Shown piece after piece: positions 1 to 11,019 of a stretch of DNA of 11,019 bases (positions are counted from its first letter, which is position 1; each line of letters opens with the position of its first letter). The position numbers and the translations under genes are program-made. The notes beneath the pieces are model-generated. The model ran no database searches. It was not told where the DNA came from and saw only the letters and a program-made list of their open reading frames with translations. Source of the DNA: a virus (taxonomy: Duplodnaviria; Heunggongvirae; Uroviricota; Caudoviricetes); IMG/VR virus record IMGVR_UViG_2534681990_000030; one strand, 5' to 3'.

Positions 1-186
1 TCATTGGTTGCCAGCCCGCGAATCAAGTTTGTTCTGGATCCAAGCTTCAACCTCCTCAAGCGACCATCTAGCTGATCTACCAATTTTAACTGGCTGTGGA
101 AACGTGCCCGTCTTAACCCATGAGTAGATTGCCGTTTTCTTGAAGCCCGTTCTGAGCATGACTTCGCTTAATTTGATAAGGCGCAT
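1..186 (-). CDS. alpA: AlpA-family phage transcriptional regulator (small HTH DNA-binding protein)
   Basis: 61-aa ORF MRLIKLSEVMLRTGFKKTAIYSWVKTGTFPQPVKIGRSARWSLEEVEAWI matches the AlpA pattern (L..EV...G.S...IY.....G.FP.PVKIG.R...W...E...W). ATG at 186-184 with GAGGAG 6 nt upstream; stop at 3-1. It is transcribed out of the window to the left. Confidence 0.75.
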   Translation of the reverse strand: MRLIKLSEVMLRTGFKKTAIYSWVKTGTFPQPVKIGRSARWSLEEVEAWIQNKLDSRAGNQ

Positions 187-235
187 AGAGGCTCCTCTGC
201 TTTAGATTAAGCATAGTGACAATCTGGCTTTGGGT

Positions 236-300
236 GGTATCCAAAAGCGAGGTATCCATGTTGGTATCCACCAAAACGCTGTTTACCAAAAAGTTACCAC
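236..300. repeat. Direct repeats of GGTATCCA (3 exact copies at 236-243, 251-258, 263-270) plus two degenerate GTTTACCA/GTTACCAC copies, in a divergent intergenic region
   Basis: Read directly from the sequence. Lies between the alpA start (186) and the divergent small gene (438). Could be regulator or recombinase binding sites; function not established. Confidence 0.45.
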
Positions 301-382
301 CGGAACAGGACATTTTGAGCTGTAACTTAACACATAGCATATGGAGTTCACGCATAGACTTCACGCACAACGGCTCTGGCCA

Positions 383-412
383 GTGAAGAATCACCCTGGC
401 TAGCAATATAAT
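383..412 (+). promoter_or_regulatory. Candidate sigma70 promoter for the small gene at 438 (-10 TATAAT at 407-412, weak -35 around 383-389)
   Basis: Perfect TATAAT hexamer 26 nt upstream of the ATG; the -35 match is poor. Sequence-only prediction. Confidence 0.3.
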
Positions 413-437
413 GCCGATCACCATCAGAGGGGAATCC

Positions 438-629
438 ATGACACCACGAGAAATCGAGCTGCTGACCATTGCCAAGCTGGAGCATGGCGGCCACCAGCTC
501 AGCCCGGCAGAACTGCGGGAATTAAGGCGCCAGCTGGCAGAGGGCCCTGTAATAGCCAGGCGGTACCGCGAAATGATGACCAGCCCCGCATATCGCTGGA
601 GCAAACCAGCGCCGCTCCGTGCGCGGTGA
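438..629 (+). CDS. Small hypothetical protein (63 aa), paralog A of a duplicated family
   Basis: ATG at 438 with AGAGGGG 5 nt upstream. I chose 438 over the track's 411 because the paralog at 1438 starts at the equivalent MTPREI and cannot extend upstream (in-frame TGA at 1432-1434). N-terminal 21 aa are 20/21 identical to the 1438 ORF; shared C-terminal REMM..PAY.W.KPAP motif. Confidence 0.6.
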   Translation: MTPREIELLTIAKLEHGGHQLSPAELRELRRQLAEGPVIARRYREMMTSPAYRWSKPAPLRAR

Positions 630-703
630 GCAGCACCTAACCAGCACTAGACAAGCCCTGTGCTGGTGGATGTCCCTCATAATTAGCGGTTTTTAAACGG
701 CGT

Positions 704-824
704 GTTGGTTCACGGCCTCTTTTTGTTGGTTCAAAAATGGGGTGTGTTGGTTCACTTTTTGCGAATAATTCTTTTAAAAACAATACTCTTTACAAATTGA
801 ACCAACTGAACCAACTGAACCAAC
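704..824. repeat. Iteron/operator-like array: GTTGGTTCA x3 in direct orientation with exact 21-bp phasing (704, 725, 746), an AT-rich spacer, then TGAACCAAC x3 in tandem (798-824, inverted orientation)
   Basis: Read directly from the sequence. Sits immediately upstream of the PerC-like gene (ATG 861); a TATAAT hexamer lies at 842-847. Confidence 0.6.
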
Positions 825-860
825 ACCTTTTTGCTTATCTATATAATCTGAGAGGCAGAA

Positions 861-1142
861 ATGATAAGGGACAGGAAAGCTGAAGAGCTGGAGTCAAAAG
901 GGCTATACCGGAGAGCTGCCGCACGATGGATGGAAGTCATGCTGTTATGCACCGAGGACGATGATCGGGAATGGATAAAGCGCCGCCGTGAAACGTGTCT
1001 GGAGAACGTGAAGCGCCCGCCCGTGAAGGTTGAGGAATTTGGCGACCTGCATAAAGCTGTTACCGAAACGCAACACCGCATGGGGATAGCGCAACCGAAC
1101 GGTAACGCCTTCCGGTTAAATGGCGGCAAGAGGCAAAGGTAG
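861..1142 (+). CDS. PerC-family transcriptional regulator (PerC/Pch-like)
   Basis: 93-aa ORF with AEELESKGLYRRAAARWMEVM ... REWIKRRRETC ... TETQHRMGIAQPNGNAFR, matching the conserved PerC/Pch pattern (LE.KGLWRRAA.RW.EV ... WI..RR..C ... TQ.RMGI..P.G.AFR) as I recall it. GAGAGG RBS 4 nt upstream of the ATG. Confidence 0.65.
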   Translation: MIRDRKAEELESKGLYRRAAARWMEVMLLCTEDDDREWIKRRRETCLENVKRPPVKVEEFGDLHKAVTETQHRMGIAQPNGNAFRLNGGKRQR

Positions 1143-1146
1143 ACCA

Positions 1147-1168
1147 CCAGAGGGAAATCATCCTCTGG
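1147..1168 (+). terminator. Hairpin (CCAGAGG - 8 nt loop - CCTCTGG) 5 nt after the PerC-like stop codon; weak intrinsic terminator candidate
   Basis: Perfect 7-bp inverted repeat. The downstream tract (ctggcggtttctggtatttc) is only moderately T-rich, so termination is uncertain. Confidence 0.3.
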
Positions 1169-1437
1169 CTGGCGGTTTCTGGTATTTCGGGACAAGTACG
1201 CGCGCGTAGCACCCAATCGGTGAGGAAATAGCGGCGACCTGAATGGTCAAAATCACAACGCAGCTATCCCCGTAAGCAGCGCTTAACGGAATAGCAGTAA
1301 CCTGAATCCAGTGGGGAGGGGGTAGTCAAATCTCTACAGCCCTGACTATCCGGGACTGCCCGCCCCATCGTTTTTTTATACCCGCGAAAAATGAAATTTA
1401 ATCCGGGCGTGTTTCATCCTTCCAGAGGGTATGACGT

Positions 1438-1623
1438 ATGACACCACGCGAAATAGCCTTATTGACCATCGCCAAACTTGAGCACGGAGGCCACCAGCTT
1501 ACACAGGCAGATCAACGGGAGATAGAACGATCAGTTAATGCCGATATAGCCCGGCGCGACAGGTTCCGCGAAATGATGCGAGCACCTGCCTACCAGTGGA
1601 AGAAGCCAGCGCCGCGCAGGTAG
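1438..1623 (+). CDS. Small hypothetical protein (61 aa), paralog B of a duplicated family
   Basis: ATG at 1438 with AGAGGG 8 nt upstream. Same N-terminus (MTPREIALLTIAKLEHGGHQL) and C-terminal motif as the 438 ORF, with many synonymous nucleotide differences between the copies. Confidence 0.6.
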   Translation: MTPREIALLTIAKLEHGGHQLTQADQREIERSVNADIARRDRFREMMRAPAYQWKKPAPRR

Positions 1624-1743
1624 ATATGGGATTATTCCACATGTAACTTATGCGTATTAAGCAAATTTCCTTTATTCACCTTTACAGAATTGTGAGTACG
1701 TCAGTATCGTTATCCTTCCGATTCGCATTTATTCAGGATTTGC

Positions 1744-2286
1744 ATGTACCAGCTAAAGATAACCATCCGAGACAGCAAACCACCTATATGGCGGCGTGTG
1801 CTGGTTCCAGAGCAAATCCCCTTTAGTAAACTTCATGCCGTGATCCAGTTAGCTTTTGGCTGGAATGACGAACACCTGTATATGTTCGAGAAAGGGCGTA
1901 AAGGTGATCCAGGTAGCGAGTATCGCGTATGGGGTGAGGATGAAAGCATGGGTAACGCGGCAATCACGCCACTATGGGCGGCGCTCCAGAATGAGGGTGA
2001 CAAGCTGGTTTACACGTATGACTTTGGCGACTGGTGGGATTGCGTCATTGTGCTGGAGAAGCAAACACACGATACGAGTAATCAGCCCATTAGCTGCCTG
2101 CGTGGGAAAGGCACCACCCCGGCGGAAAACTCAGGCGGCTTGCATGGTTACAATGAATTGCTATTACAGGCCAGAGAGTCTGATAATCCTGAGCAGGCCG
2201 AGATCCACAATTTCCTGATGCTGGATATTGAACGCCGGGTTTACGACCTGAGCCGCATCAACGACAGATTGCAGGCTATTAACTGA
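1744..2286 (+). CDS. pRiA4b ORF-3-like family protein (function unknown)
   Basis: 180-aa ORF with the family hallmarks as I recall them: N-terminal LKITIRDSKPPIWRRVLVP....LHAVIQLAFGWNDEHLYMF, central YTYDFGDWWDCVIVLEK, and CLRGKG..PAENSGGLHGY. Preceded by an AT-rich promoter-like region (1624-1743). Confidence 0.7.
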   Translation: MYQLKITIRDSKPPIWRRVLVPEQIPFSKLHAVIQLAFGWNDEHLYMFEKGRKGDPGSEYRVWGEDESMGNAAITPLWAALQNEGDKLVYTYDFGDWWDCVIVLEKQTHDTSNQPISCLRGKGTTPAENSGGLHGYNELLLQARESDNPEQAEIHNFLMLDIERRVYDLSRINDRLQAIN

Positions 2287-2638
2287 CCCGCATGTATTCA
2301 CCTGATATTGCGTTGTCAGCGCCGCCAGTATCGCGCATAACAGCGCACTGACCGGGTAAACCGTAGCGCACGACCGTTGCGTTAGTATCACCGCCGCGCC
2401 GTATCTGGCGCGATTCATACACTGTCACCCGCTCAAGCAGTCCACCAGCAACCATGCTTTCCAGTGTGCGCCGGGTTGATTCGAGCTGGTGACGCTTATC
2501 GAACGACACCATGCCATGAAGCAGGTAGGCCACACCCGACACATCGAACGGCGGCGCACCAATCTCACCAGTCACCCATTCGAGGTTATCCGGTTCAAAG
2601 TAGCTAAGTATCTCTTTTTTGCGACTGGTCATTCTCAT
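2279..2638 (-). CDS. Hypothetical protein (119 aa), convergent with and overlapping the 3' end of the pRiA4b ORF-3-like gene by 8 nt
   Basis: ATG at 2638 with AAGGAA about 10 nt upstream. The N-terminal two-thirds (MTSRKKEILSYFEPDNLEWVTGEIGAPPFDVSGVAYLLHGMV...LESMVAGGLLERV) looks protein-like; the C-terminal third is low-complexity. A 7-bp inverted repeat (TTATTGT 2654-2660 / ACAATAA 2676-2682) lies just upstream of the RBS. Confidence 0.45.
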   Translation of the reverse strand: MRMTSRKKEILSYFEPDNLEWVTGEIGAPPFDVSGVAYLLHGMVSFDKRHQLESTRRTLESMVAGGLLERVTVYESRQIRRGGDTNATVVRYGLPGQCAVMRDTGGADNAISGEYMRVS

Positions 2639-2639
2639 G

Positions 2640-3274
2640 GCTGGCTGATTCCTTATTGTGGGATAGCACTATCATACAATAAGTGGGTTAAAGGGAGAGC
2701 GTTACCGCCTGATATGCTGTATGAATAACAACCAAATTTCAGGTGCGGAAAAAGATATGGGGGTACTTTTGGGGGTATCTATAAAAAATGAACAATAAAA
2801 AAGGCAACAAAAACAAAGCTTATCGCCTATGTGTATTGTTCCTATTATCGCACCATTTATATCAAGCAATTACGATTAAATCCTCTCTTTGTCTGCATCA
2901 TGATTTTTTCCGTGTAACTCCATGTGTAAGTAATTTTCGTCAACATAAATCAACAATAGAGCATCCGTATCTCAGATTGGCTCAGTCTTGTTGATTTTTT
3001 CATCTTGATGAAACAATATTTCTGATATTGATGTTGGACATTTGGGGGGGCAGCTTAGCAGGCCTGTACAGGTTGTTTCATTGATTATTGCTCTATATGC
3101 CTGCCCTTTTAGATAGCCCTTTCCTGTCTACTTCCATCTATGGTGTAATCCCTTGCGAGATTAAGGTTTCTTTCGAGAGATAGTATGGAATTATTCGAAA
3201 ATTATTTGTCAGCGTTACCTAAAAAAAAGCGATTGAGTAAAGTCAAGTTGATTATCCTAAAGAGATTATGGGTT
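2640..3274. other. ~630-bp AT-rich segment with no convincing ORF, located at the truncation point of the primase gene
   Basis: Markedly lower GC than the flanks. Only a 68-aa plus-strand ORF with implausible composition is present. Contains a G7 homopolymer (3044-3050) and an A8 tract (about 3219-3226). Confidence 0.5.
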
Positions 3275-3913
3275 TCAGATGATTTTGATTTTCCTAAACC
3301 TTGGGTCAGTCAGGAGTCTTTTTTCACCATGTGATGTAATAGTCTGTGCTGCTGTGACTGCGCCGGATTTATCCACCAGCGCCAGCAACAGAGATCCATC
3401 GGGCAACACGGGGAATGTAAAATCACCTACCCCTTTCGCAACCAGATAATCAGATTTGCCGTTTACAGCCTTTCTGCGCATGTCATCAAACTGACGGGAA
3501 AACGTATCCCGTCTTTGTTGTTCGTCCTTCTCTGCCCTTTTCAGGCGCTCCTGTTCGCGTCGCTGGCGCTCGGTTTCCAGTTGTTCCCGTTTCTGGCTGG
3601 TGGCTTCTGGTGTTTCCGTTGTCCGGTAATCAATACCCAGAACATCAGCGGCAAGAAGCGCCGCCTCTGTTGTGTCGCAGTTATTTACGCGTTTAATTAA
3701 ATCCAGCCCATCACCAGCGCCGCACTGATTACAGATGAAGCTACCGCGCCCGTTGTCATCGAACCGGAATCGATCTTTGCCCCCACATGCAGGGCAGGGA
3801 GCATGACGGCGCGGAGAGTCAGGGACATTTATGTTCAGGCAGCCCAGCACATGAGGCCAGTTGTTTTCAGACGCACTGATAACCTGACGGATAAGATCAA
3901 TGTTTCGCATCAC
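3275..3913 (-). CDS. DNA primase (P4 alpha / toprim-type), N-terminal zinc-ribbon portion only; apparently truncated before the catalytic Toprim and helicase domains
   Basis: 212-aa ORF containing HAPCPACGGKDRFRFDDNGRGSFICNQCGAGDGLDL (CxxC...CxxC primase zinc ribbon), a charged linker, then the first residues of a Toprim-like region (DYLVAKGVGDFTFPVLPDGSLLLALVDKSG), ending at a TGA at 3277-3275. Full-length homologs are typically 600-800 aa (from memory). Start is GTG 3913 or ATG 3910. Confidence 0.6.
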   Translation of the reverse strand: MMRNIDLIRQVISASENNWPHVLGCLNINVPDSPRRHAPCPACGGKDRFRFDDNGRGSFICNQCGAGDGLDLIKRVNNCDTTEAALLAADVLGIDYRTTETPEATSQKREQLETERQRREQERLKRAEKDEQQRRDTFSRQFDDMRRKAVNGKSDYLVAKGVGDFTFPVLPDGSLLLALVDKSGAVTAAQTITSHGEKRLLTDPRFRKIKII

Positions 3914-4268
3914 CGTACCCCACGTGGTCTATAGCGTTTGCGATATGGCTAACCAGCATCTGCCACTTGGTTATTCCGTAATCAGTCAGCATGCCATCAT
4001 TGTTTAGCCACATATCAAATTCAGCGGTTGTCGCAAGTTTCCACTTATCGCCGTGGACAGTCCTCATTGCTGGGTACATGAATGCGCAAATCAGATCACA
4101 AACATCTGACGGCTTCAGAGATGTAGTAATGGTGCGTCCCTCTGGCGTCTGAATTGCCATTTTCTCTTCACCAGTAGAATGAAGGTTATGAATCCACACA
4201 GCACCAGCAATCTTTGCCACCTGCTCTCCGATTGCGGAGCTAAGCGCCATTTCTGCATTTTCACGCAT
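3897..4268 (-). CDS. Hypothetical protein (123 aa)
   Basis: ATG at 4268 overlaps the upstream gene's stop by 8 nt; its own stop overlaps the primase start. No motif recognised. Confidence 0.5.
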   Translation of the reverse strand: MRENAEMALSSAIGEQVAKIAGAVWIHNLHSTGEEKMAIQTPEGRTITTSLKPSDVCDLICAFMYPAMRTVHGDKWKLATTAEFDMWLNNDGMLTDYGITKWQMLVSHIANAIDHVGYGDAKH

Positions 4269-4602
4269 GAGAACCTCCCGCTACAGTTGCGCCCATGTCA
4301 TTAACCATGCTTTGCCATATCTCACGCCCGACGTCAGTCAATCCGTCCTTAGTGACGCAACGCTCAAGAAGCTCGATCCCCACGGTTTCCCACTGCGGGT
4401 AGAACACTTTCATGGCTGCCAGTGTGTAGCTATCGATCAGGCTGCGAACGCCTTTTACTCCATTAACGATTTCCACACGTACGGCCTCGCCGTCCGCATC
4501 AACCATGAAATAGTCCCCGCCGCTGGTGGAGGTAATGTGGTTATACAGTGCCGACGCATACTTATTTGCCAGCGCATTCAGTCGGAAATTTTTAGTAATC
4601 AT
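4261..4602 (-). CDS. Hypothetical protein (113 aa)
   Basis: ATG at 4602 with GGATGGAG immediately upstream, 10 nt after the stop of the preceding gene. No motif recognised. Confidence 0.5.
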   Translation of the reverse strand: MITKNFRLNALANKYASALYNHITSTSGGDYFMVDADGEAVRVEIVNGVKGVRSLIDSYTLAAMKVFYPQWETVGIELLERCVTKDGLTDVGREIWQSMVNDMGATVAGGSHA

Positions 4603-4612
4603 GGCTCCATCC

Positions 4613-5215
4613 TCAGTGCGTCACTGGTTCCGCTGGCATGCCGTTTTCATTCAGTTCAGCTATAAAGCTGTTGTGAAGTTCAGCAAGCGTTTCACGACCA
4701 AATGGAGTCAGTGCTCCTTGTTCCACATCCATCATGGCTCTGTAGAAAATGATGGCGCGTTCTGTGCCAGACTCGATGCCAAAACGTTCTATCATCGCTC
4801 CCTCAATGTTGTTTGCCATAGCGAGGCGCTCTGCTACTGGATACAGCGGCATGGCGACGATGCCGTTGGAATAAACAGCCACTTCGGAAGGATTGCCAGT
4901 ATCATCAATGATGCTGACAGTGCCGTTTTCCTCTCTCATTTCCAGCATGAATACTGTTGCGATCAGCCATCTCCACATAATGACGTTATGCTGTGATGTG
5001 TAATCGAAATATCCCTGGTTGCCGCCATCGGCAATAGCGAGATGTATTGACATACCTTCATCTGGTTTATCGTCATAATCCCCGGCATCCAGACGATTTA
5101 CGGCATCAATATATGAGACGGCCTCAACGCGTTCTGTCATGCCATCGTTGCTGCGGTACATGATGTTTACGCCGTCAGGCGTTGCTTCTGTATGGAAAGT
5201 TAAGAAATTATTCAT
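4613..5215 (-). CDS. Hypothetical protein (200 aa from ATG 5215; the ORF track extends to 5320)
   Basis: I favour ATG 5215 (MNNFLTFHTE...) because it overlaps the upstream gene's TAA (5208-5210) in the same coupling pattern seen across the operon, with GAGG upstream. The track's longer start would overlap the upstream gene by more than 100 nt. Confidence 0.5.
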   Translation of the reverse strand: MNNFLTFHTEATPDGVNIMYRSNDGMTERVEAVSYIDAVNRLDAGDYDDKPDEGMSIHLAIADGGNQGYFDYTSQHNVIMWRWLIATVFMLEMREENGTVSIIDDTGNPSEVAVYSNGIVAMPLYPVAERLAMANNIEGAMIERFGIESGTERAIIFYRAMMDVEQGALTPFGRETLAELHNSFIAELNENGMPAEPVTH

Positions 5216-5429
5216 GTTTCGCCTCGCCTGAATGATTCTGTAACTCATATTTGCCCAACAATTCGTCCGCTTCCTGAATAGCTTCTGGTACGCCATTGAG
5301 CAGTGACATAACCGCGCCAATCATTAACTTGTCTCTGTTGCTGGGGCTGGCCCCTTCAAGCCAGAACCCTAAAACAGTCTGAACCTGTTCGATGCGACAT
5401 TGCGCTTCAATGAGCTGGATGTTGGTCAT
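5208..5429 (-). CDS. Hypothetical small protein (73 aa)
   Basis: ATGA start/stop overlap with the upstream gene at 5426-5429. Confidence 0.45.
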   Translation of the reverse strand: MTNIQLIEAQCRIEQVQTVLGFWLEGASPSNRDKLMIGAVMSLLNGVPEAIQEADELLGKYELQNHSGEAKHE

Positions 5430-5689
5430 TTCGCACTCTCCACATCGATTAAACCGATATCTATCAGGGAGGTAACTTTTTGTAGCCAGCTATTGATTAC
5501 TGTCGCCTGTTCCCCGCCCACCGAGGGAACAATCTCATTCATCACATGAACCAGACCTGTGCGCGCTCTGGTAAGCCGTTCAGTCGCGCAATCTGCGGGA
5601 GTGAATGTGTCTGGATATGGCTCTTCACGCCCCAGCAATGATTCAATTTCCAGCTCACACGGATGACGATAAATTAAGTTGATATTCAT
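5426..5689 (-). CDS. Hypothetical small protein (87 aa)
   Basis: ATGA start/stop overlap at 5686-5689; GGGGGTG RBS upstream. Confidence 0.45.
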   Translation of the reverse strand: MNINLIYRHPCELEIESLLGREEPYPDTFTPADCATERLTRARTGLVHVMNEIVPSVGGEQATVINSWLQKVTSLIDIGLIDVESAK

Positions 5690-5880
5690 TTTTCACCCCC
5701 AAGAATTACCAGCTCGGCACGGGCATCGTTAACCAAAGATGAGCACGCTTTAATCGCATCCACGACATCAGTAGCGTCCATTTCTTCAGCCGAAAGACTG
5801 ACAGCAACCAGGACAGCCGCTGCTTGCTCGATTAATTGAAGTGCGGACGTAAGGCGAGGGGTATTAATTGAGTTATTCAT
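5686..5880 (-). CDS. Hypothetical small protein (64 aa from ATG 5880; the track ORF extends to 5937)
   Basis: ATG 5880 overlaps the preceding stop (5873-5875) by 8 nt. Start choice is uncertain. Confidence 0.4.
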   Translation of the reverse strand: MNNSINTPRLTSALQLIEQAAAVLVAVSLSAEEMDATDVVDAIKACSSLVNDARAELVILGGEK

Positions 5881-6091
5881 TGGTTGCCCCCGTTTTTCCT
5901 GGCATTTCGCCACCTTCCAGCAGGAAATGAACGTCACGAACGGCGAGATCCAATATCGCGAGTAACGCCTTCAGTCTTTCGTCTCGTGAGGGAGAGTTGC
6001 TCACCAGAATGTCGTTAATCACTTCTGTCAGTGTGATGATCTGGCTTGTGCGTTCGAGGGGATCCATATGCACATCGTAGGTTTTAATCAT
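5873..6091 (-). CDS. Hypothetical small protein (72 aa, [17 protein letters not shown]...); an internal in-frame start within the long 5873..6940 ORF
   Basis: ATG at 6091-6089 with GGAGGTG 4 nt upstream, overlapping the Icd-like stop by 8 nt. Sequence is protein-like, unlike the long ORF's frame immediately upstream. Confidence 0.4.
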   Translation of the reverse strand: MIKTYDVHMDPLERTSQIITLTEVINDILVSNSPSRDERLKALLAILDLAVRDVHFLLEGGEMPGKTGATNE

Positions 6092-6940
6092 GTGCCACCT
6101 CCATGCGGATACGACCAGCAAAAAAGCAGATGTGATCGCGCACCAGAGAACGGCGAGCATCGCGTTCAGACTCGGCAGCAATATGATGAATTTTGGCGGT
6201 AATTGTCGGGCAATCGCGGCGAACTGCGGCGATAATCCAGATAAATTGCGGTTTTTGGGTAGGGGTAGTAGCCAGCATGTGGCAGCCTCCTTGTACTGGG
6301 AGTTCTTCCCACCACCGGAGCTGCGAAACTCGCTGGTGGTGGACTGAACAGAGTTCGCAGTACCGGCGTACAAGGAAACCGGCCAGCCTTTCGGCTGCCC
6401 TGTCCAGCCCACCATAATTTTGCAAGCGACGCGGATTATAACCGCATCACTGAAAAAAGTGTGAGTCTGGCTAACGGCACAAAAAAAGACGCTCGGCGCG
6501 TCATGTGTCGCCTCGTACATTTCCGGGCTGCGAAACCCGGCACCCGTTTTATGAGGTGCCTTATAACCATAAACCGTGTTGCCGCATAACGGCAAGCTCT
6601 TTTTTATGGACTCCGAAAACTCACTATTGGAAGCACCAGATGCACAATACATCGCGCTCATTTCGTTAACGTCGCGCGTGTGGACGAAGGTTTTTGTGGA
6701 GTCACTACGCGAGCAGAGAAAGCCATCTACGACCAGAAATTCTCTGGCGCAGCCGCCGACCTTCTCAACGCTAACACCATCGACCGTAATTTCTGACATA
6801 GTTAAGGCATCCGCTCCCACCACCAGAAAATGATAAACTTTGCTTGTATCTGCTGTATTAATGCCAGACTTTGCTGTCATATTGCTGGATTTTGGCGACA
6901 TACCAGCCAGTGAAAATATCTTCTTCTGGACGGTTAGCAT
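5873..6940 (-). CDS. Long ORF (355 aa) of unresolved gene model: hypothetical protein whose first ~170 codons (6940 to ~6430) look protein-like; the remainder overlaps the Icd-like and 72-aa genes
   Basis: ATG at 6940 with GGAGG 7 nt upstream, overlapping the preceding gene's stop. The frame stays open to 5873, but between ~6425 and 6091 its translation is S/L/P/A-rich and unprotein-like while another frame carries the Icd-like gene with a strong RBS. Possible frameshift or lost stop. Confidence 0.35.
6084..6278 (-). CDS. Icd-like protein (host cell division inhibitor Icd-like family), 64 aa
   Basis: [64 protein letters not shown] resembles Icd-like small proteins of P4-type elements (recollection, not a search). 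ATG at 6278-6276 with AAGGAGG 8 nt upstream. It lies out of frame inside the long ORF 5873..6940. Confidence 0.45.
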   Translation of the reverse strand: MLATTPTQKPQFIWIIAAVRRDCPTITAKIHHIAAESERDARRSLVRDHICFFAGRIRMEVAHD

Positions 6941-7116
6941 TTGTTAACCTCCGCGAACTCCTTCATGAAGCGCGCCAGCGGTTGTACGCATGGCGATTGA
7001 TACCCGTCGCGATAAAACGTCACTCGGTTGTGAGACACGCTTTCGACAGTAACGAGTGCTCCGTGGGCATCCTTGTAGCGTTTTTGAGGTTGTGGTGTTC
7101 CTGTCGGCTTAAACAT
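6934..7116 (-). CDS. Hypothetical small protein (60 aa, [60 protein letters not shown])
   Basis: ATG at 7116-7114 with GGAGGTGG 4 nt upstream; overlaps the AntA-like stop. The track's longer ORF to 7203 would overlap the AntA-like gene by ~95 nt. Confidence 0.45.
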   Translation of the reverse strand: MFKPTGTPQPQKRYKDAHGALVTVESVSHNRVTFYRDGYQSPCVQPLARFMKEFAEVNKC

Positions 7117-7942
7117 GGACCACCTCCAGACGCTTAGCGAGCCAGCGTTGCGACAGGCGGGTGAGTTCTCCTTTGCGCTGCTCATATTCCATGCCCATAT
7201 CAATTAACGTGATATTGGTGCTTTCGAGATATGAGAGGTGCTCAAGTTGTTCTGCGTTCATATGGTCGCGAGGTTCGCCAGAATAGCCATTTATCCGCGC
7301 CCACTGCTTAGCAGTTAGCCCACCAAGAACGATACGAGAAATCATATTGCTCTCGTTTGTGTAGTGGTGTTGCTGCGTCGTTTTCCCCTGCTCGGCACGG
7401 GCCATATTCAGCGCATCGCACATTGGCTTAAAGTTGTTTGCGGCACTGATACGGGCTTTTAGCTGGCGAAGATAGCGGGCGGCGATTTCAGGAACGCTAC
7501 GCTGTAATTCTTCCTCGCACTGGATGAAATAACGGCGGATAGCGCGACCCTGATCATTGCGTTCGATCATTGCCAGTTCTTTCGCCATTCCGACACTTAA
7601 CAGATAGTCTTTGCCGGGTCTGCCAGACTGCTTAATCTTTCTGTAAGCCACGCCATTCGGGCTTTTCCCCAAATTTGGGGAAATAGTTTTATGGACTGAG
7701 TAATCGTGCCCAATGGTGAAGTCATATTCAGAGATGCGATCAGTGATCCATGTAGAGAAGTCTTTTCCCACGCCCAACGCTTTGTGTAACGCTTTTGCGC
7801 TAACAATATTGGTTTCACGCCCACCGATATGACCAGGAATAACCGGGACAATTGCGGCAAATTCATTACCGTTAATTGTGCTCAGAGAGGCGTTCAGATG
7901 AGGGGCGGCCTCAGAAATTAATCTGCTTTTTTCGATGTTCAT
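7109..7942 (-). CDS. Phage antirepressor-like protein (AntA/AntB N-terminal domain family)
   Basis: 277-aa ORF. N-terminal NIVSAKALHKALGVGKDFSTWITDRISEYDFTIGHDY matches the AntA/AntB antirepressor motif (ARDLH..L......F..WI..RI..Y.F..G.DF) as I recall it. GGAGA RBS; ATG at 7942. Confidence 0.6.
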   Translation of the reverse strand: MNIEKSRLISEAAPHLNASLSTINGNEFAAIVPVIPGHIGGRETNIVSAKALHKALGVGKDFSTWITDRISEYDFTIGHDYSVHKTISPNLGKSPNGVAYRKIKQSGRPGKDYLLSVGMAKELAMIERNDQGRAIRRYFIQCEEELQRSVPEIAARYLRQLKARISAANNFKPMCDALNMARAEQGKTTQQHHYTNESNMISRIVLGGLTAKQWARINGYSGEPRDHMNAEQLEHLSYLESTNITLIDMGMEYEQRKGELTRLSQRWLAKRLEVVHV

Positions 7943-7954
7943 TTTCAGTCTCCG

Positions 7955-8386
7955 TTAAGCGGCGTTAAACGCGTCCGGGTAGAGTTTCAGAATGTCGGCA
8001 ATTTCCTGCTGAGAAAGTCCGTTGTGATCATTTATGTTCGCAAGATGGTTAATATGAGTGATCACTTTCAGAACATCACCACGGCAGGAGAAACGGTAGC
8101 GAAGGTGTGTTCCGATACCATCAGGATTCTTTTCGTCGATACGCTCCAGAGTGATTCCAAGCTGGCGTTCTAACTCTGTTGCATAGTTACGACCAGAAGA
8201 CAGACGGCAGTAGCGAAGAATGTCATTTTCTGTCCATCCCTCTATACCAGTACGCAGCATATAGACTCTGGCACGATGCTTTTTCGGTGTGCGCTTTGGT
8301 GCTTGAAGGGATTTTGTAAGGGGCGTAACATCAGATACGCGAATATCTGAATTAGCCGCCTGTAATGGGCGGTTTTTCTTATTCAT
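7955..8386 (-). CDS. Hypothetical protein (143 aa), basic N-terminus; possible DNA-binding protein
   Basis: ATG at 8386 overlaps the alpA stop (TAATG). Lys/Arg-rich N-terminus (PKRTPKKHRAR). No specific family recognised. Confidence 0.5.
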   Translation of the reverse strand: MNKKNRPLQAANSDIRVSDVTPLTKSLQAPKRTPKKHRARVYMLRTGIEGWTENDILRYCRLSSGRNYATELERQLGITLERIDEKNPDGIGTHLRYRFSCRGDVLKVITHINHLANINDHNGLSQQEIADILKLYPDAFNAA

Positions 8387-8583
8387 TACGCTACCTCGCC
8401 ACGCGACTCAGCGATGCGCTGATTAATCCATTCTTCAATTTCACTTTCAATAAACGCAATTGATCGGCTTCCAATCTTTACAGATTGAGGGAATCGCTGT
8501 TCTTTGATGAGCCGATAAATCCACGCTTTGCTGTAACCAGTACGGCGTTGAACCTCAGAAAGACGAATAAATGATTGAGACAT
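8386..8583 (-). CDS. alpA: AlpA-family phage transcriptional regulator
   Basis: 65-aa ORF FIRLSEVQRRTGYSKAWIYRLIKEQRFPQSVKIGSRSIAFIESEIEEWI matches the AlpA pattern. AGGAG RBS 5 nt upstream of ATG 8583. Positioned as first gene of the coupled operon downstream of the integrase. Confidence 0.8.
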   Translation of the reverse strand: MSQSFIRLSEVQRRTGYSKAWIYRLIKEQRFPQSVKIGSRSIAFIESEIEEWINQRIAESRGEVA

Positions 8584-8664
8584 GTTTACTCCTATATTCT
8601 GTCATCTTCTTTAATGGACATCAGTAGACAGAAAGGAGATTAAACAAACCGGTGAATGGGTGAT

Positions 8665-8736
8665 AGCGGATAAAAATAAAATATTTTTTTGAGAAGATTA
8701 TCCGCTTTGAAATACACAGTAGCGTATTCAAAGCGG
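8665..8736. promoter_or_regulatory. Two overlapping perfect palindromes upstream of alpA: AGCGGATA (8665-8672) / TATCCGCT (8699-8706) around an AT-rich 26-bp spacer, and CCGCTTTGAA (8702-8711) / TTCAAAGCGG (8727-8736)
   Basis: Read directly from the sequence. Located 80-150 bp upstream of the alpA start in the AT-rich spacer after the 293-aa gene. No U-tract follows on either strand, so an operator is more likely than a terminator. Confidence 0.45.
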
Positions 8737-8780
8737 AAATCGCGAAATTTACTTAAAACGTTTACGTAGGATTTTGCTTG

Positions 8781-9662
8781 CTATAAATCTCTACTCATTA
8801 AATCAGATATTTTTATCAAGCTCATTTCTCTGTCTTTGTTTACATAAAGCTGAAGCAAGCGGGTGTATCTCTCGCTTATAGATTCAAGTGCAAAAGGCTT
8901 TATTGATTCCTTAATAGCCTGCGTATCTTTCGGATCATCACTAAAAACCAAGGCAGAAATCATCGGATTGCTCACTTCCTTACCTGACTTCTCACCCCAA
9001 ATCAGCAGATCAACAATAGGTATCACTCTATTAGATATCAACTTCTGAAGGGTCTTTAATCCAATCCTTTTCTGAGCGACATGCTCTCTCTCTGGTACTT
9101 TTAACTCTTTTCGCCATAGAGGTAGAAGGTGAGTCAGGCTGGTAATAATTTCGTCATCAGTGGCGTCATCTAAATCTATAGAAACGAGTATGATGTTAGG
9201 GGAACAATTACTTAGGTTTCCAGTAACACTCGCAAGCATAGCGTTTGCCTTGAGGTAGCAATCCTCTTCGTCTCTTTTAAAAAAGCCTTGATCTATCGAT
9301 GAGAAAGAGTACATGGCCAGCTCTGAAAATGTTACTGGACTAACCCCCATAGCTGAAGATAATGAGGGAAGATCATCGTACTCATTTCTTAATGATGGGG
9401 CTTCATCATTTACTTTGCGAATAAATTCTTCGACCTCTTCCTCTTCTTCATTGAGAATGGTTAGGTTAGGATCGCCCGAAAAAATCCTTTCATATTTTAT
9501 ATCGTACTCTTCTTTGAATATAGCAGTGTCATCTTTTGCATGACGCAATAAAAAATCGCGCCACTCTAATTCTTGAATCAAGTCCGGCAAGGTTAAATCA
9601 TTTAAAAATTCATAATTACTAATATCAAACCATGCTAAATCTTGTTTTTTGGCTCTCACCAT
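8781..9662 (-). CDS. Hypothetical protein (293 aa), low-GC orphan gene in the integrase-alpA slot; acidic stretches (NEEEEEVEEF); no recognisable catalytic motif
   Basis: Long ORF with ATG at 9662 and GGGGTGG upstream. Composition is clearly more AT-rich than the flanking integrase and alpA operon, and it is bounded by AT-rich spacers. Confidence 0.6.
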   Translation of the reverse strand: MVRAKKQDLAWFDISNYEFLNDLTLPDLIQELEWRDFLLRHAKDDTAIFKEEYDIKYERIFSGDPNLTILNEEEEEVEEFIRKVNDEAPSLRNEYDDLPSLSSAMGVSPVTFSELAMYSFSSIDQGFFKRDEEDCYLKANAMLASVTGNLSNCSPNIILVSIDLDDATDDEIITSLTHLLPLWRKELKVPEREHVAQKRIGLKTLQKLISNRVIPIVDLLIWGEKSGKEVSNPMISALVFSDDPKDTQAIKESIKPFALESISERYTRLLQLYVNKDREMSLIKISDLMSRDL

Positions 9663-9804
9663 ACGCCACCCCGCGCCCCTAATTCTGACGGCTATGCCAG
9701 CCCGTAGGGGTGTACGGGTTTTCGGGGATCAGCCTAGACATAGCCTATTCTTTGTTCGTCTACATAAGTCTACTACCATTGCTTAACACGGTCTATTCAT
9801 ACAG

Positions 9805-11019
9805 TTAAGCTCGTTTCCCAAACGAACCATGAACAACGTTCTCCTCCTTCTCCAGCGCATCCATATAGTCGGCATACCATTGAAGCATCTCCCGCCTTCC
9901 ATCCAGATATTGCGCATGGTTGTATGTGCCACGAATTGAGTTCTTATCAACGTGAGCGAGCTGCGTTTCTATCCACGCGGTGTTATAGCCCTGCTCATGC
10001 AAAATCGTGCTCATAGTGTGCCGGAACCCATGACCAGTTACACGTCCAGCGTAGCCAATGCGCTTAAACACTTGGTTTATGCTGGCCTCACTCATTGTTT
10101 TCCTTGGATCATTGCGCCCGGGAAACATAAGAGGGTAATTGCCTGTTATTTCTCTAATCTTCCCAATAAGCGAAAGAGCCTGATCAGACAATGGCACAAT
10201 ATGAGGCCGCCGCATTTTCATACGTGAAGCGGGTATCTCCCAGATAGCCTTGTTGAAATCAATTTCATCCCATAATGCGCCACGTAGTTCGCCAGTCCGC
10301 AAGCCGGTGATAATCAGTAGACGAGCCGCCATAACAACCAATGCGCTTCCTGAGTAACTGGACAATGCCTTGAAAAAATCAGGTAATTCTTTAGCTGTAA
10401 GGAAAGGGTAATGATTAGATTCATGGCCTTGCATCGCGCTAGTAAGGTCTGGTGCAGGGTTATACTCTGCGCGACCAGTGACTATTGCATAGCGGAAAAC
10501 TTCCCCGCACCGCTGCCTCACTTTTTTGGCTTTTTCTGTAGCACCGCGCCCCTCGATGCGCCGCAGCACATTCAGAAGTTCAAGTGGTTTGATTTCGGCG
10601 ATTGGTTTTTTGCCAATGTAAGGGAACACATCTTTGTTGAAGGCTTCGAGGATGTCTGAAGCATAACCAGCAGACCATTTTTTTAATTTGCTGCTGTGCC
10701 ACTCAAGGGCAATATCTTTGAAGGTGTTGTTTAACTGCGTTTCCCGGGCAATCTTTTCCTCTCGTTTCGCTTCCATCGGATCGATACCACCAGCGATACC
10801 TCTTTTCGCATCTTCACGTTTTGCCCGAGCATCGGCTAGAGTAACCTCAGGATACACACCTAGTGCCAATAGCTTCTCTTTACCAGCTACACGATATTTA
10901 AGTCGCCAGTATTTACCTCCATTAGGTTTTACCAAGAGATACAAACCGCCACCATCGGCCAGCTTGTAAGCCTTCTCTTTTGGCTTGGCTGTGTCTATTT
11001 GACGGGCATTGAGTTTCAC
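9805..11019 (-). CDS. int: Tyrosine recombinase / phage integrase (P4-type); N-terminus at or just beyond the window edge
   Basis: 404-aa ORF with an N-terminal arm-binding-type motif (AKPKEKAYKLADGGGLYLLVKPNGGKYWRLKYR) and C-terminal catalytic signature HGFRHT ... IRGTYNHAQY (HxxR and nucleophile Tyr). The first codon in the window is GTG at the very last base, so the true start may lie upstream. Confidence 0.9.
   Translation of the reverse strand: MKLNARQIDTAKPKEKAYKLADGGGLYLLVKPNGGKYWRLKYRVAGKEKLLALGVYPEVTLADARAKREDAKRGIAGGIDPMEAKREEKIARETQLNNTFKDIALEWHSSKLKKWSAGYASDILEAFNKDVFPYIGKKPIAEIKPLELLNVLRRIEGRGATEKAKKVRQRCGEVFRYAIVTGRAEYNPAPDLTSAMQGHESNHYPFLTAKELPDFFKALSSYSGSALVVMAARLLIITGLRTGELRGALWDEIDFNKAIWEIPASRMKMRRPHIVPLSDQALSLIGKIREITGNYPLMFPGRNDPRKTMSEASINQVFKRIGYAGRVTGHGFRHTMSTILHEQGYNTAWIETQLAHVDKNSIRGTYNHAQYLDGRREMLQWYADYMDALEKEENVVHGSFGKRA

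Follow-up and report, generated by a model that had tools for sequence, protein, structure and literature searches.

An iteron array beside perC in an Escherichia coli O111-type island is probably an orphaned unit of a two-unit phage-satellite replication origin

Six copies of a short repeat, in two oppositely oriented sets, precede the gene for a PerC-family regulator in the window, by which we mean the whole stretch of 11,019 nucleotides analysed here (IMG/VR virus record IMGVR_UViG_2534681990_000030). The window comes from an E. coli O111-type island, and in its relatives the tRNA-Thr gene thrW adjoins the island. The array is very probably the orphaned distal unit, unit B, of a two-unit replication origin that belongs to a thrW satellite of the PICI type (P4-like) and is read by the satellite's own primase-helicase. 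It is an orphaned half-origin, because a rearrangement removed unit A together with most of the primase-helicase gene. A preliminary description had suggested either a relic origin (or crr) with a truncated primase or an operator for the adjacent regulator gene; the relic-origin reading holds with two corrections, as the element is nearer to the Gram-negative PICIs than to P4 and the array is one of two origin units. The features of the window are as follows.

1-2873, no strand: distal satellite module, inverted relative to the intact element (99.7% to L026 7260-4386, reverse)
1-186, minus strand: second alpA-like gene (Pfam)
411-629, plus strand: orf72, 72 codons
703-754, plus strand: three phased direct iterons TGTTGGTTCA, 21-bp phase
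755-797, no strand: A+T-rich spacer, presumed unwinding region, with the 3' part CTTTACAAAT (from composition and alignment)
798-824, minus strand: three tandem iterons TGAACCAAC in the opposite orientation, 9-bp spacing
825-847, plus strand: conserved flank ACCTTTTTGCTTATCTATATAAT (from the alignment of relatives)
861-1142, plus strand: perC (Pfam PerC, 3.7e-30)
about 1308-1411: cos-like site (phage cohesive-end matches)
1438-1623, plus strand: orf61, 61 codons
1744-2286, plus strand: pRiA4b-ORF3 gene (Pfam)
2279-2638, minus strand: ORF
2874-3308, no strand: rearrangement junction, 435 bp not found in the intact 6409 element
3275-3913, minus strand: truncated initiator gene, 212-codon ORF (Pfam Zn_Ribbon_Prim, 8.6e-16)
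8386-8583, minus strand: AlpA-type gene
9805-11019, minus strand: int

The repeat unit of the phased set is a 10-mer, TGTTGGTTCA, found on the plus strand at 703-712, 724-733 and 745-754 with start-to-start distances of 21 and 21 bp, or about two helical turns. Its inner 9-mer GTTGGTTCA lies at 704, 725 and 746, exactly where the preliminary description had placed three direct copies in 21-bp phase. The three tandem reverse complements that it had reported at 798-824 are likewise present, as TGAACCAAC head to tail at 798, 807 and 816 (spacing 9 and 9 bp), and its AT-rich spacer of about 40 bp measures 43 bp (755-797) with 79% A+T, compared with 52% for the whole window. Given the base composition, 0.087 copies of an exact 9-mer would be expected by chance on both strands, whereas six are seen, and shuffling the window 200 times never gave a 9-mer more than four copies within 130 nt. 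Beyond the array, no exact copy of the 9-mer was found within the 11-kb window; the search for it in the same DNA and in related islands, which had been proposed as a check, thus gave a single array here and clusters in the relatives.

Conservation of the array in related elements, on which its significance had been made to depend, is evident in 11 loci from six genera, in which the 21-bp phase of the iterons is kept and identity to the window amounts to 86% in the iteron columns, compared with 54% for the bases between iterons and 40% for the upstream flank. The 3' part of the spacer, CTTTACAAAT, is nearly invariant between genera in the alignment. Matches in the phage collection to window 187-1700 were restricted to the cos region and one short Klebsiella phage match at about 724-843, which overlaps the array. 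Among the papers listed by a literature search none names the 9-mer as an iteron, the iterons in Fig. 2a of PMC6092414 lying outside the scope of that search.

Loci compared with the window carry L-numbers (L001 is E2863, L005 E. coli ABWA45, L016 Serratia oryzae and L026 E. coli 6409). The first sample consisted of 17 loci with a DUF927-type primase (L002, L005 and L007-L021) from about ten enterobacterial genera (Escherichia, Citrobacter, Rahnella, Pantoea, Cedecea, Winslowiella, Pectobacterium, Serratia, Apirhabdus, and Tenebrionibacter), 15 of which, E. albertii included, came from a scan at one genome per species. Iterons were called as the 9-mers that recur most often within 600 bp downstream of the primase stop codon. 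In 17 of 17 loci some 25 bp separate the stop codon of a Zn-ribbon/TOPRIM/DUF927 primase-helicase gene from an iteron cluster. Clusters of GTTGGTTCA in this position were found in 11-12 loci (8 of the 17 first sampled, plus L026-L028), and 6 of the 15 loci of the one-genome-per-species scan use this 9-mer; the remaining DUF927 loci have other iteron types, namely CGTGGTTCA, GTGGGTTAY, TGGGAYAAS, and KCCGGTTCA. At the equivalent position after the gene, primases of the DUF5906 type (L004, L029) have their own iterons, ACCTRTACC.

Among the GTTGGTTCA loci the last 100 residues of the primase-helicase share 61-100% identity, compared with 36-66% between these and loci with other iterons, while the preceding 400 residues are 62-92% identical across iteron groups. 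The pair L010 and L021, whose iterons differ, illustrates this, with 89% identity in this core and 44% in the tail. As far as these alignments reach, the iteron sequence varies with the last ~100 residues of the primase-helicase and not with the rest of the protein, and the differences point to at least five specificity groups of iterons in this satellite family. We infer from the covariation that the iterons would be read by the satellite's fused primase-helicase through its C-terminal domain. Three lines of evidence lead to this domain as the probable reader: the position of the clusters, the covariation with the tail, and the absence of such covariation for AlpA and perC. The relic-origin reading of the preliminary description is borne out to the extent that clusters of the same 9-mer follow the stop codons of DUF927-type primase-helicases and covary with the C-terminal domain of the protein.

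Both of the regulators near the array were considered as readers of the iterons and rejected. PerC does not qualify, as perC is missing from 7 of 7 compact GTTGGTTCA loci and present beside other iterons, including in the islands EcCICFT073 and EcCI042. For AlpA, the type of protein and the type of iteron do not go together: AlpA proteins 73-80% identical to the second AlpA of the window co-occur with three different iteron types, and within the GTTGGTTCA group the AlpA homologues are 28-39% identical or undetected. The same comparison bears on the proposal that the repeats serve the integrase as arm-type sites or are bound by an excisionase-regulator of the AlpA/Vis type. Proteins of that type bind short direct repeats, and the alpA-like gene at 1-186 on the minus strand is some 500 bp from the array. 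The occurrence of similar AlpAs with three iteron types speaks against this proposal, as does the position of the array in compact elements, right after the primase stop codon and several kb from both int and alpA, and we regard it as very improbable.

In the compact elements the origin is made up of two units, A and B, which are inverted relative to each other and lie within 300 bp. In unit A, some 55 bp of A+T-rich spacer separate a tandem pair of GTTGGTTCA from four TGAACCAAC spaced 11, 21, and 21 bp apart. In unit B, GTTGGTTCA occurs two or three times in 21-bp phase, and an A+T-rich spacer of some 43 bp, with CTTTACAAAT at its end, leads to three tandem TGAACCAAC and the flank TTTTGCTTATCTATA. 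As an inverted copy, unit B shares 79% identity with unit A over 123 bp. By this comparison of layout and sequence, the array in the window is identified as unit B. The TGAACCAAC triple that ends unit B is complete in L002, L003, L005, L010, L020, and L028, and one tandem copy is degenerate or missing in L004, L007, L008, L009, and L013. The flank that follows unit B is conserved even in elements without perC.

In seven compact loci units A and B together start about 25 bp after the primase stop codon. One of these elements, in strain ABWA45 (L005), is a compact satellite of 11-12 kb within a prophage, with 12 copies of the 9-mer within 300 bp after the primase and without perC. In the larger islands (042, 6409, L027, and L028) the units are split: unit A follows the primase gene and unit B lies 7.5-9.5 kb further on, before perC. 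The islands with split units are thrW and dinD islands (042, 6409, FDAARGOS_1260, and CFSAN027343). In E. coli 042 the first cluster of 9-mers begins 26 bp after the stop codon of the TOPRIM+DUF927 primase-helicase gene, and the second, with a layout identical to that of the window, lies 7.5 kb further, just before perC.

Several observations on the content of these elements can be added. The ABWA45 satellite (L005 2742-14600) lies among prophage late genes, between a DUF2213 gene and a cement-protein gene, a placement that resembles the 'helper-embedded PICI' arrangement of PMC10111431. The cargo between the two units encodes homologues of phage DNA-ejection/injection proteins (DUF2824, 'phage DNA ejection protein', lytic transglycosylase) of a P22-like kind (L002 2311-6969; L026 8953-13498; L027 11082-16428), and ejection-protein genes are an unusual cargo for a satellite. 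The motif TCTGGCTGGC occurs just after unit A in several satellites, including those of the DUF5906 type (L004 5054 and 5125; L005 11953; L007 11906; L008 11898; L020 11895), and also just after the perC stop codon in the window (1164-1173).

The window also contains a putative cos site. Positions ~1351-1402 are nearly identical to the first ~50 bases (the left end) of phage SfV, and ~1312-1402 match the region of phiP27 that holds the annotated cos, as well as the ends of SfII, SfIV, and ST64B. With a cos of the SfV/phiP27 type, the satellite probably depends on SfV/phiP27-type helpers and not on lambda or P2. Repeated elements make up cosB regions, and this cos lies about 480 bp downstream of the array, so the repeats might be taken for cosB-like recognition sites of a terminase small subunit. 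However, perC stands between array and cos, no copy of the SfV/phiP27-type cos was detected in the compact GTTGGTTCA elements, which do have the array, and in intact elements the array adjoins the primase gene and not cos; such a role is scarcely credible.

The block of array, perC, and cos is flanked by orf72 and orf61, paralogues of 72 and 61 amino acids that are 62% identical. orf72 is unannotated in RefSeq, and homologues of the pair occur in other satellites (L005, L008, L015, L016, and L021). The only family match of orf61 is PHROG 7271, a family of unknown function; it shows no similarity to SfV TerS, though it holds the position after cos that TerS has. The two were considered as Rpp packaging proteins and rejected, RppA and RppC being 144-153 amino acids long.

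How the unit in the window came to stand alone can be read from the intact relative, E. coli 6409. Window positions 3309-11019, which include int and the AlpA-type gene as well as antA and an ash-family gene, also on the minus strand, match L026 16238-23948 at 99.95%. In L026 the primase gene is a full TOPRIM+DUF927 CDS (14083-16839, 918 codons; protein WP_001585368.1 for the 6409-type full-length primase-helicase) that is followed by unit A (13940-14065). The N-terminus of this intact gene is the ORF at 3275-3913 of the window, which confirms the earlier suggestion that the cognate primase is the truncated one: the ORF comprises the first ~201 codons of a Zn-ribbon/TOPRIM/DUF927 primase-helicase and lacks the helicase and the C-terminal domain. 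The remnant lies 2.4 kb from the array on the opposite strand, and the array is thus not immediately 3' of pri in the window. An ancestral primase of the DUF5906 type was rejected, since the window contains no ACCTRTACC and the gene of 6409 is of the DUF927 type.

The window has therefore lost the primase codons beyond ~201, unit A, and the cargo, and its module of unit B, perC, and cos is inverted, as this alignment shows directly. Relative to the intact 6409 island about 9 kb are missing, including the C-terminus of the primase, unit A, and the ejection-protein genes. Because unit A and the primase beyond codon ~201 are deleted, the array is unable to fire in cis, and only an initiator of the same specificity, brought by a co-resident or incoming satellite, would make it more than a relic. 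About 540 E. coli genomes have the array. In O111 genomes there is one match to it, compared with two in genomes with intact islands; from the single match we infer that the O111 genomes retain neither unit A nor a standard cognate pri-ori module. The rearranged site has received further insertions in the O111 strains E2863 and 14614 (HNH endonuclease, Dcm methylase, IS1203), and window 3185-3307 corresponds to the start of a CDS annotated as HNH endonuclease in E2863 (L001 17185-17844). Three RNA elements of the window match Rfam above the gathering score, all on the minus strand: C4 antisense RNA at 6332-6419 (81 bits), isrK at 6482-6559 (69 bits), and the int-alpA RNA at 9677-9744 (47 bits). 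C4 and isrK are P4-type immunity RNA elements and overlap the region of the ash-family gene.

The position of unit B invites another explanation, namely that the array is mainly a transcriptional control region for perC and the genes downstream, where a protein bound to the tandem copies would switch a promoter, and that replication is secondary. The array ends 36 nt before the perC ATG, and the flank ACCTTTTTGCTTATCTATATAAT contains a perfect TATAAT (842-847), 13 nt before this ATG and without a -35 hexamer, whose -35 position is overlapped by the tandem copies. The flank TTTTGCTTATCTATA is kept after unit B in several genera with a rightward gene always next, unit B is retained beside non-cognate primases, and the ori of P4 is likewise upstream of a late promoter region. 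However, a consensus scan finds no sigma-70 promoter at 630-860, and promoter and terminator scans of 180-1750 gave no promoter in the array and no terminator, while a transcript from the TATAAT would start within the Shine-Dalgarno sequence. Moreover, unit B occurs without perC in seven loci and perC occurs with other iterons, and the repeat follows the C-terminal domain of the primase and not PerC or AlpA. We consider a primarily regulatory array unlikely; regulation of perC is in any case compatible with the origin and not an alternative to it. The operator of the preliminary description is thus retained as a possible side role, with PerC and AlpA both excluded as its readers.

The occurrence of unit B beside primases that use other iterons deserves separate attention. 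E. coli E1620 and 2014EL-1346-6 have an intact unit B despite a DUF5906 primase with a complete ACCTRTACC origin of its own; unit B is intact in Serratia oryzae (L016), too, where the resident primase uses TGGGATAAG iterons. The GTTGGTTCA unit B of L016 (17498-17940) lies 127 bp after an orf72-like gene and 6 kb from the primase, so that the pairing of orf72 and unit B seen in the window recurs in another genus with a non-cognate primase. The DUF5906 satellites L004 and L029 have two clusters of ACCTRTACC about 1.1 kb apart (L004 4933-5036 and 6043-6146; L029 after 12903) and still possess, ahead of perC, a unit B of the GTTGGTTCA type. Over its N-terminal 201 residues the DUF5906-type primase is 99.5% identical to the truncated ORF of the window, and this identity across the DUF5906 and DUF927 types indicates that N- and C-terminal parts of the primases are shuffled between satellites. 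A unit B beside a non-cognate primase implies either frequent shuffling of modules or a use that is independent of the resident primase. Frequent recombination in shared cargo is the simplest account, and unit B may have a function independent of the resident primase.

Among characterised systems, the origins of Gram-negative PICIs are closest. The pri-ori region of EcCICFT073 maintained a thermosensitive plasmid, and deletion of pri or ori abolished maintenance; according to the same article, a Gram-negative PICI ori consists of two sets of short iterons around an A+T-rich region (Fillol-Salom et al., 2018; PMC6092414). Satellites of the PICI/P4 kind are recognised by co-oriented int, alpA, and primase genes together with a helper-type cos (PMC10111431, PMC6092414). 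The present island has these co-oriented genes, a helper-type cos, a specific att site (next to thrW in relatives), and a size within 10-20 kb (the intact relatives measure ~18-19 kb), the copy in the window being rearranged and defective. The two iteron sets are present, as three phased copies, a 43-bp spacer, and three inverted tandem copies, and comparison suggests that here, too, the iterons are matched to the element's own initiator. The island also shares its content (int, alpA, Icd-like/ash region, primase, ori, perC, and cos) with Gram-negative PICIs, of which perC is a usual passenger. As in EcCICFT073, 9-bp direct and inverted iterons surround an A+T-rich stretch and start just after the primase stop codon, but the iteron is GTTGGTTCA here and CTGTCTACC there, and the initiator is a Zn-ribbon/TOPRIM/DUF927 fusion of 918-926 aa in contrast to a 584-aa 'DNA primase family protein'. 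The Gram-negative PICI origins differ further from those of the thrW and dinD islands, whose units are separated by 7.5-9.5 kb that include P22-like ejection-protein genes, as well as in the SfV/phiP27-type cos and in the orphaned, inverted unit of the window.

The SaPI origins of Staphylococcus are a second point of reference. SaPI Rep reads iterons through a C-terminal winged helix, and its ori, directly after rep, has an A+T-rich centre flanked on either side by two or more iterons in opposite directions, where Rep has been proposed to load one hexamer per side without a separate loader (PMC9371898). The satellites of Enterobacterales share with SaPI Rep and PriRep5 an ori right after the initiator gene, opposed iterons around an A+T-rich centre, and a variable C-terminal domain that sets specificity. 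Among solved chains, 8tch, 'Pathogenicity island protein' (2.7e-15), and 5dgk, 'Active helicase', match the DUF927 part, a homology at the sequence level in the helicase core. The iterons of SaPIs are shorter, with 5-6 nt compared with 9-10 nt here.

P4, to which the preliminary description had compared the array, has a similar arrangement. In its annotation (NC_001609) crr lies directly after alpha and ori between the leftward vis, an AlpA-type gene, and the rightward sid operon, both being built from TGTTCACC; the preliminary description had given the P4 type-1 repeat correctly. Both elements have two iteron clusters and one primase-helicase, copies in both orientations around A+T-rich DNA, one cluster (crr in P4) after the initiator gene and the other (ori in P4) between a leftward vis/alpA and a rightward operon that ends at cos, and the order in the window is the same, with alpA on the minus strand, the array, perC on the plus strand, and cos. 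Two separated clusters are also found in 042, 6409, L027, and L028, 7.5-9.5 kb apart, which is a likeness of arrangement and not of sequence. The N-terminal primase part of alpha is homologous (~33-35% identity over ~340 residues by BLAST), but BLAST detected no similarity to alpha in the helicase or origin-binding parts, and the initiator here is of the DUF927 type and not, like alpha, of the D5_N/DUF5906/Pox_D5 type. Nor are the iterons those of type 1, as TGTTCACC shares only GTTCA with (T)GTTGGTTCA. Of the GTTCAC core that had been thought common to both, GTTCA alone is invariant among the six copies of the window, the next base being C, A, and C in the phased and A, G, and G in the tandem set. 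Gene order differs as well, as do the helper type and cos, which is that of P2 in P4. With a resemblance of 5 nt and unrelated origin-binding parts, the element is nearer to those Gram-negative PICIs whose helicase resembles SaPI Rep than it is to P4.

A possible course of initiation at such an origin can be sketched from SaPI Rep and P4 alpha. The C-terminal domain of the primase-helicase would bind the 9-mers that flank the 43-bp A+T-rich spacer, oligomers of the initiator would assemble on the two opposed sets of iterons in unit B (and likewise in unit A), the A+T-rich spacer would melt, and the helicase would then load itself while the primase domain primes. That the two units act at a distance across 7.5-9.5 kb of cargo, with unit B doubling as a switch near perC and cos under the control of the initiator, seems rather doubtful. 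If true, it would couple replication of the satellite to the expression of a PerC-family virulence regulator, and an orphan unit B would be retained to titrate or answer the initiators of incoming satellites, with incompatibility or amplification of perC in situ as the outcome.

The origin described here is of the already known PICI/SaPI/P4 kind, to which the split arrangement and the specificity groups add useful details, and thinking on how such origins work is unchanged by these data. For the annotation of related satellites they provide a rule: iterons start about 25 bp after the stop codon of the primase-helicase gene, and their sequence would be set by the last ~100 residues of the protein. 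For EHEC O111-type genomes, a probable function is assigned to a conspicuous repeat beside the gene of a PerC-family regulator, and this portion of the thrW island appears as a broken phage satellite that no longer replicates itself.
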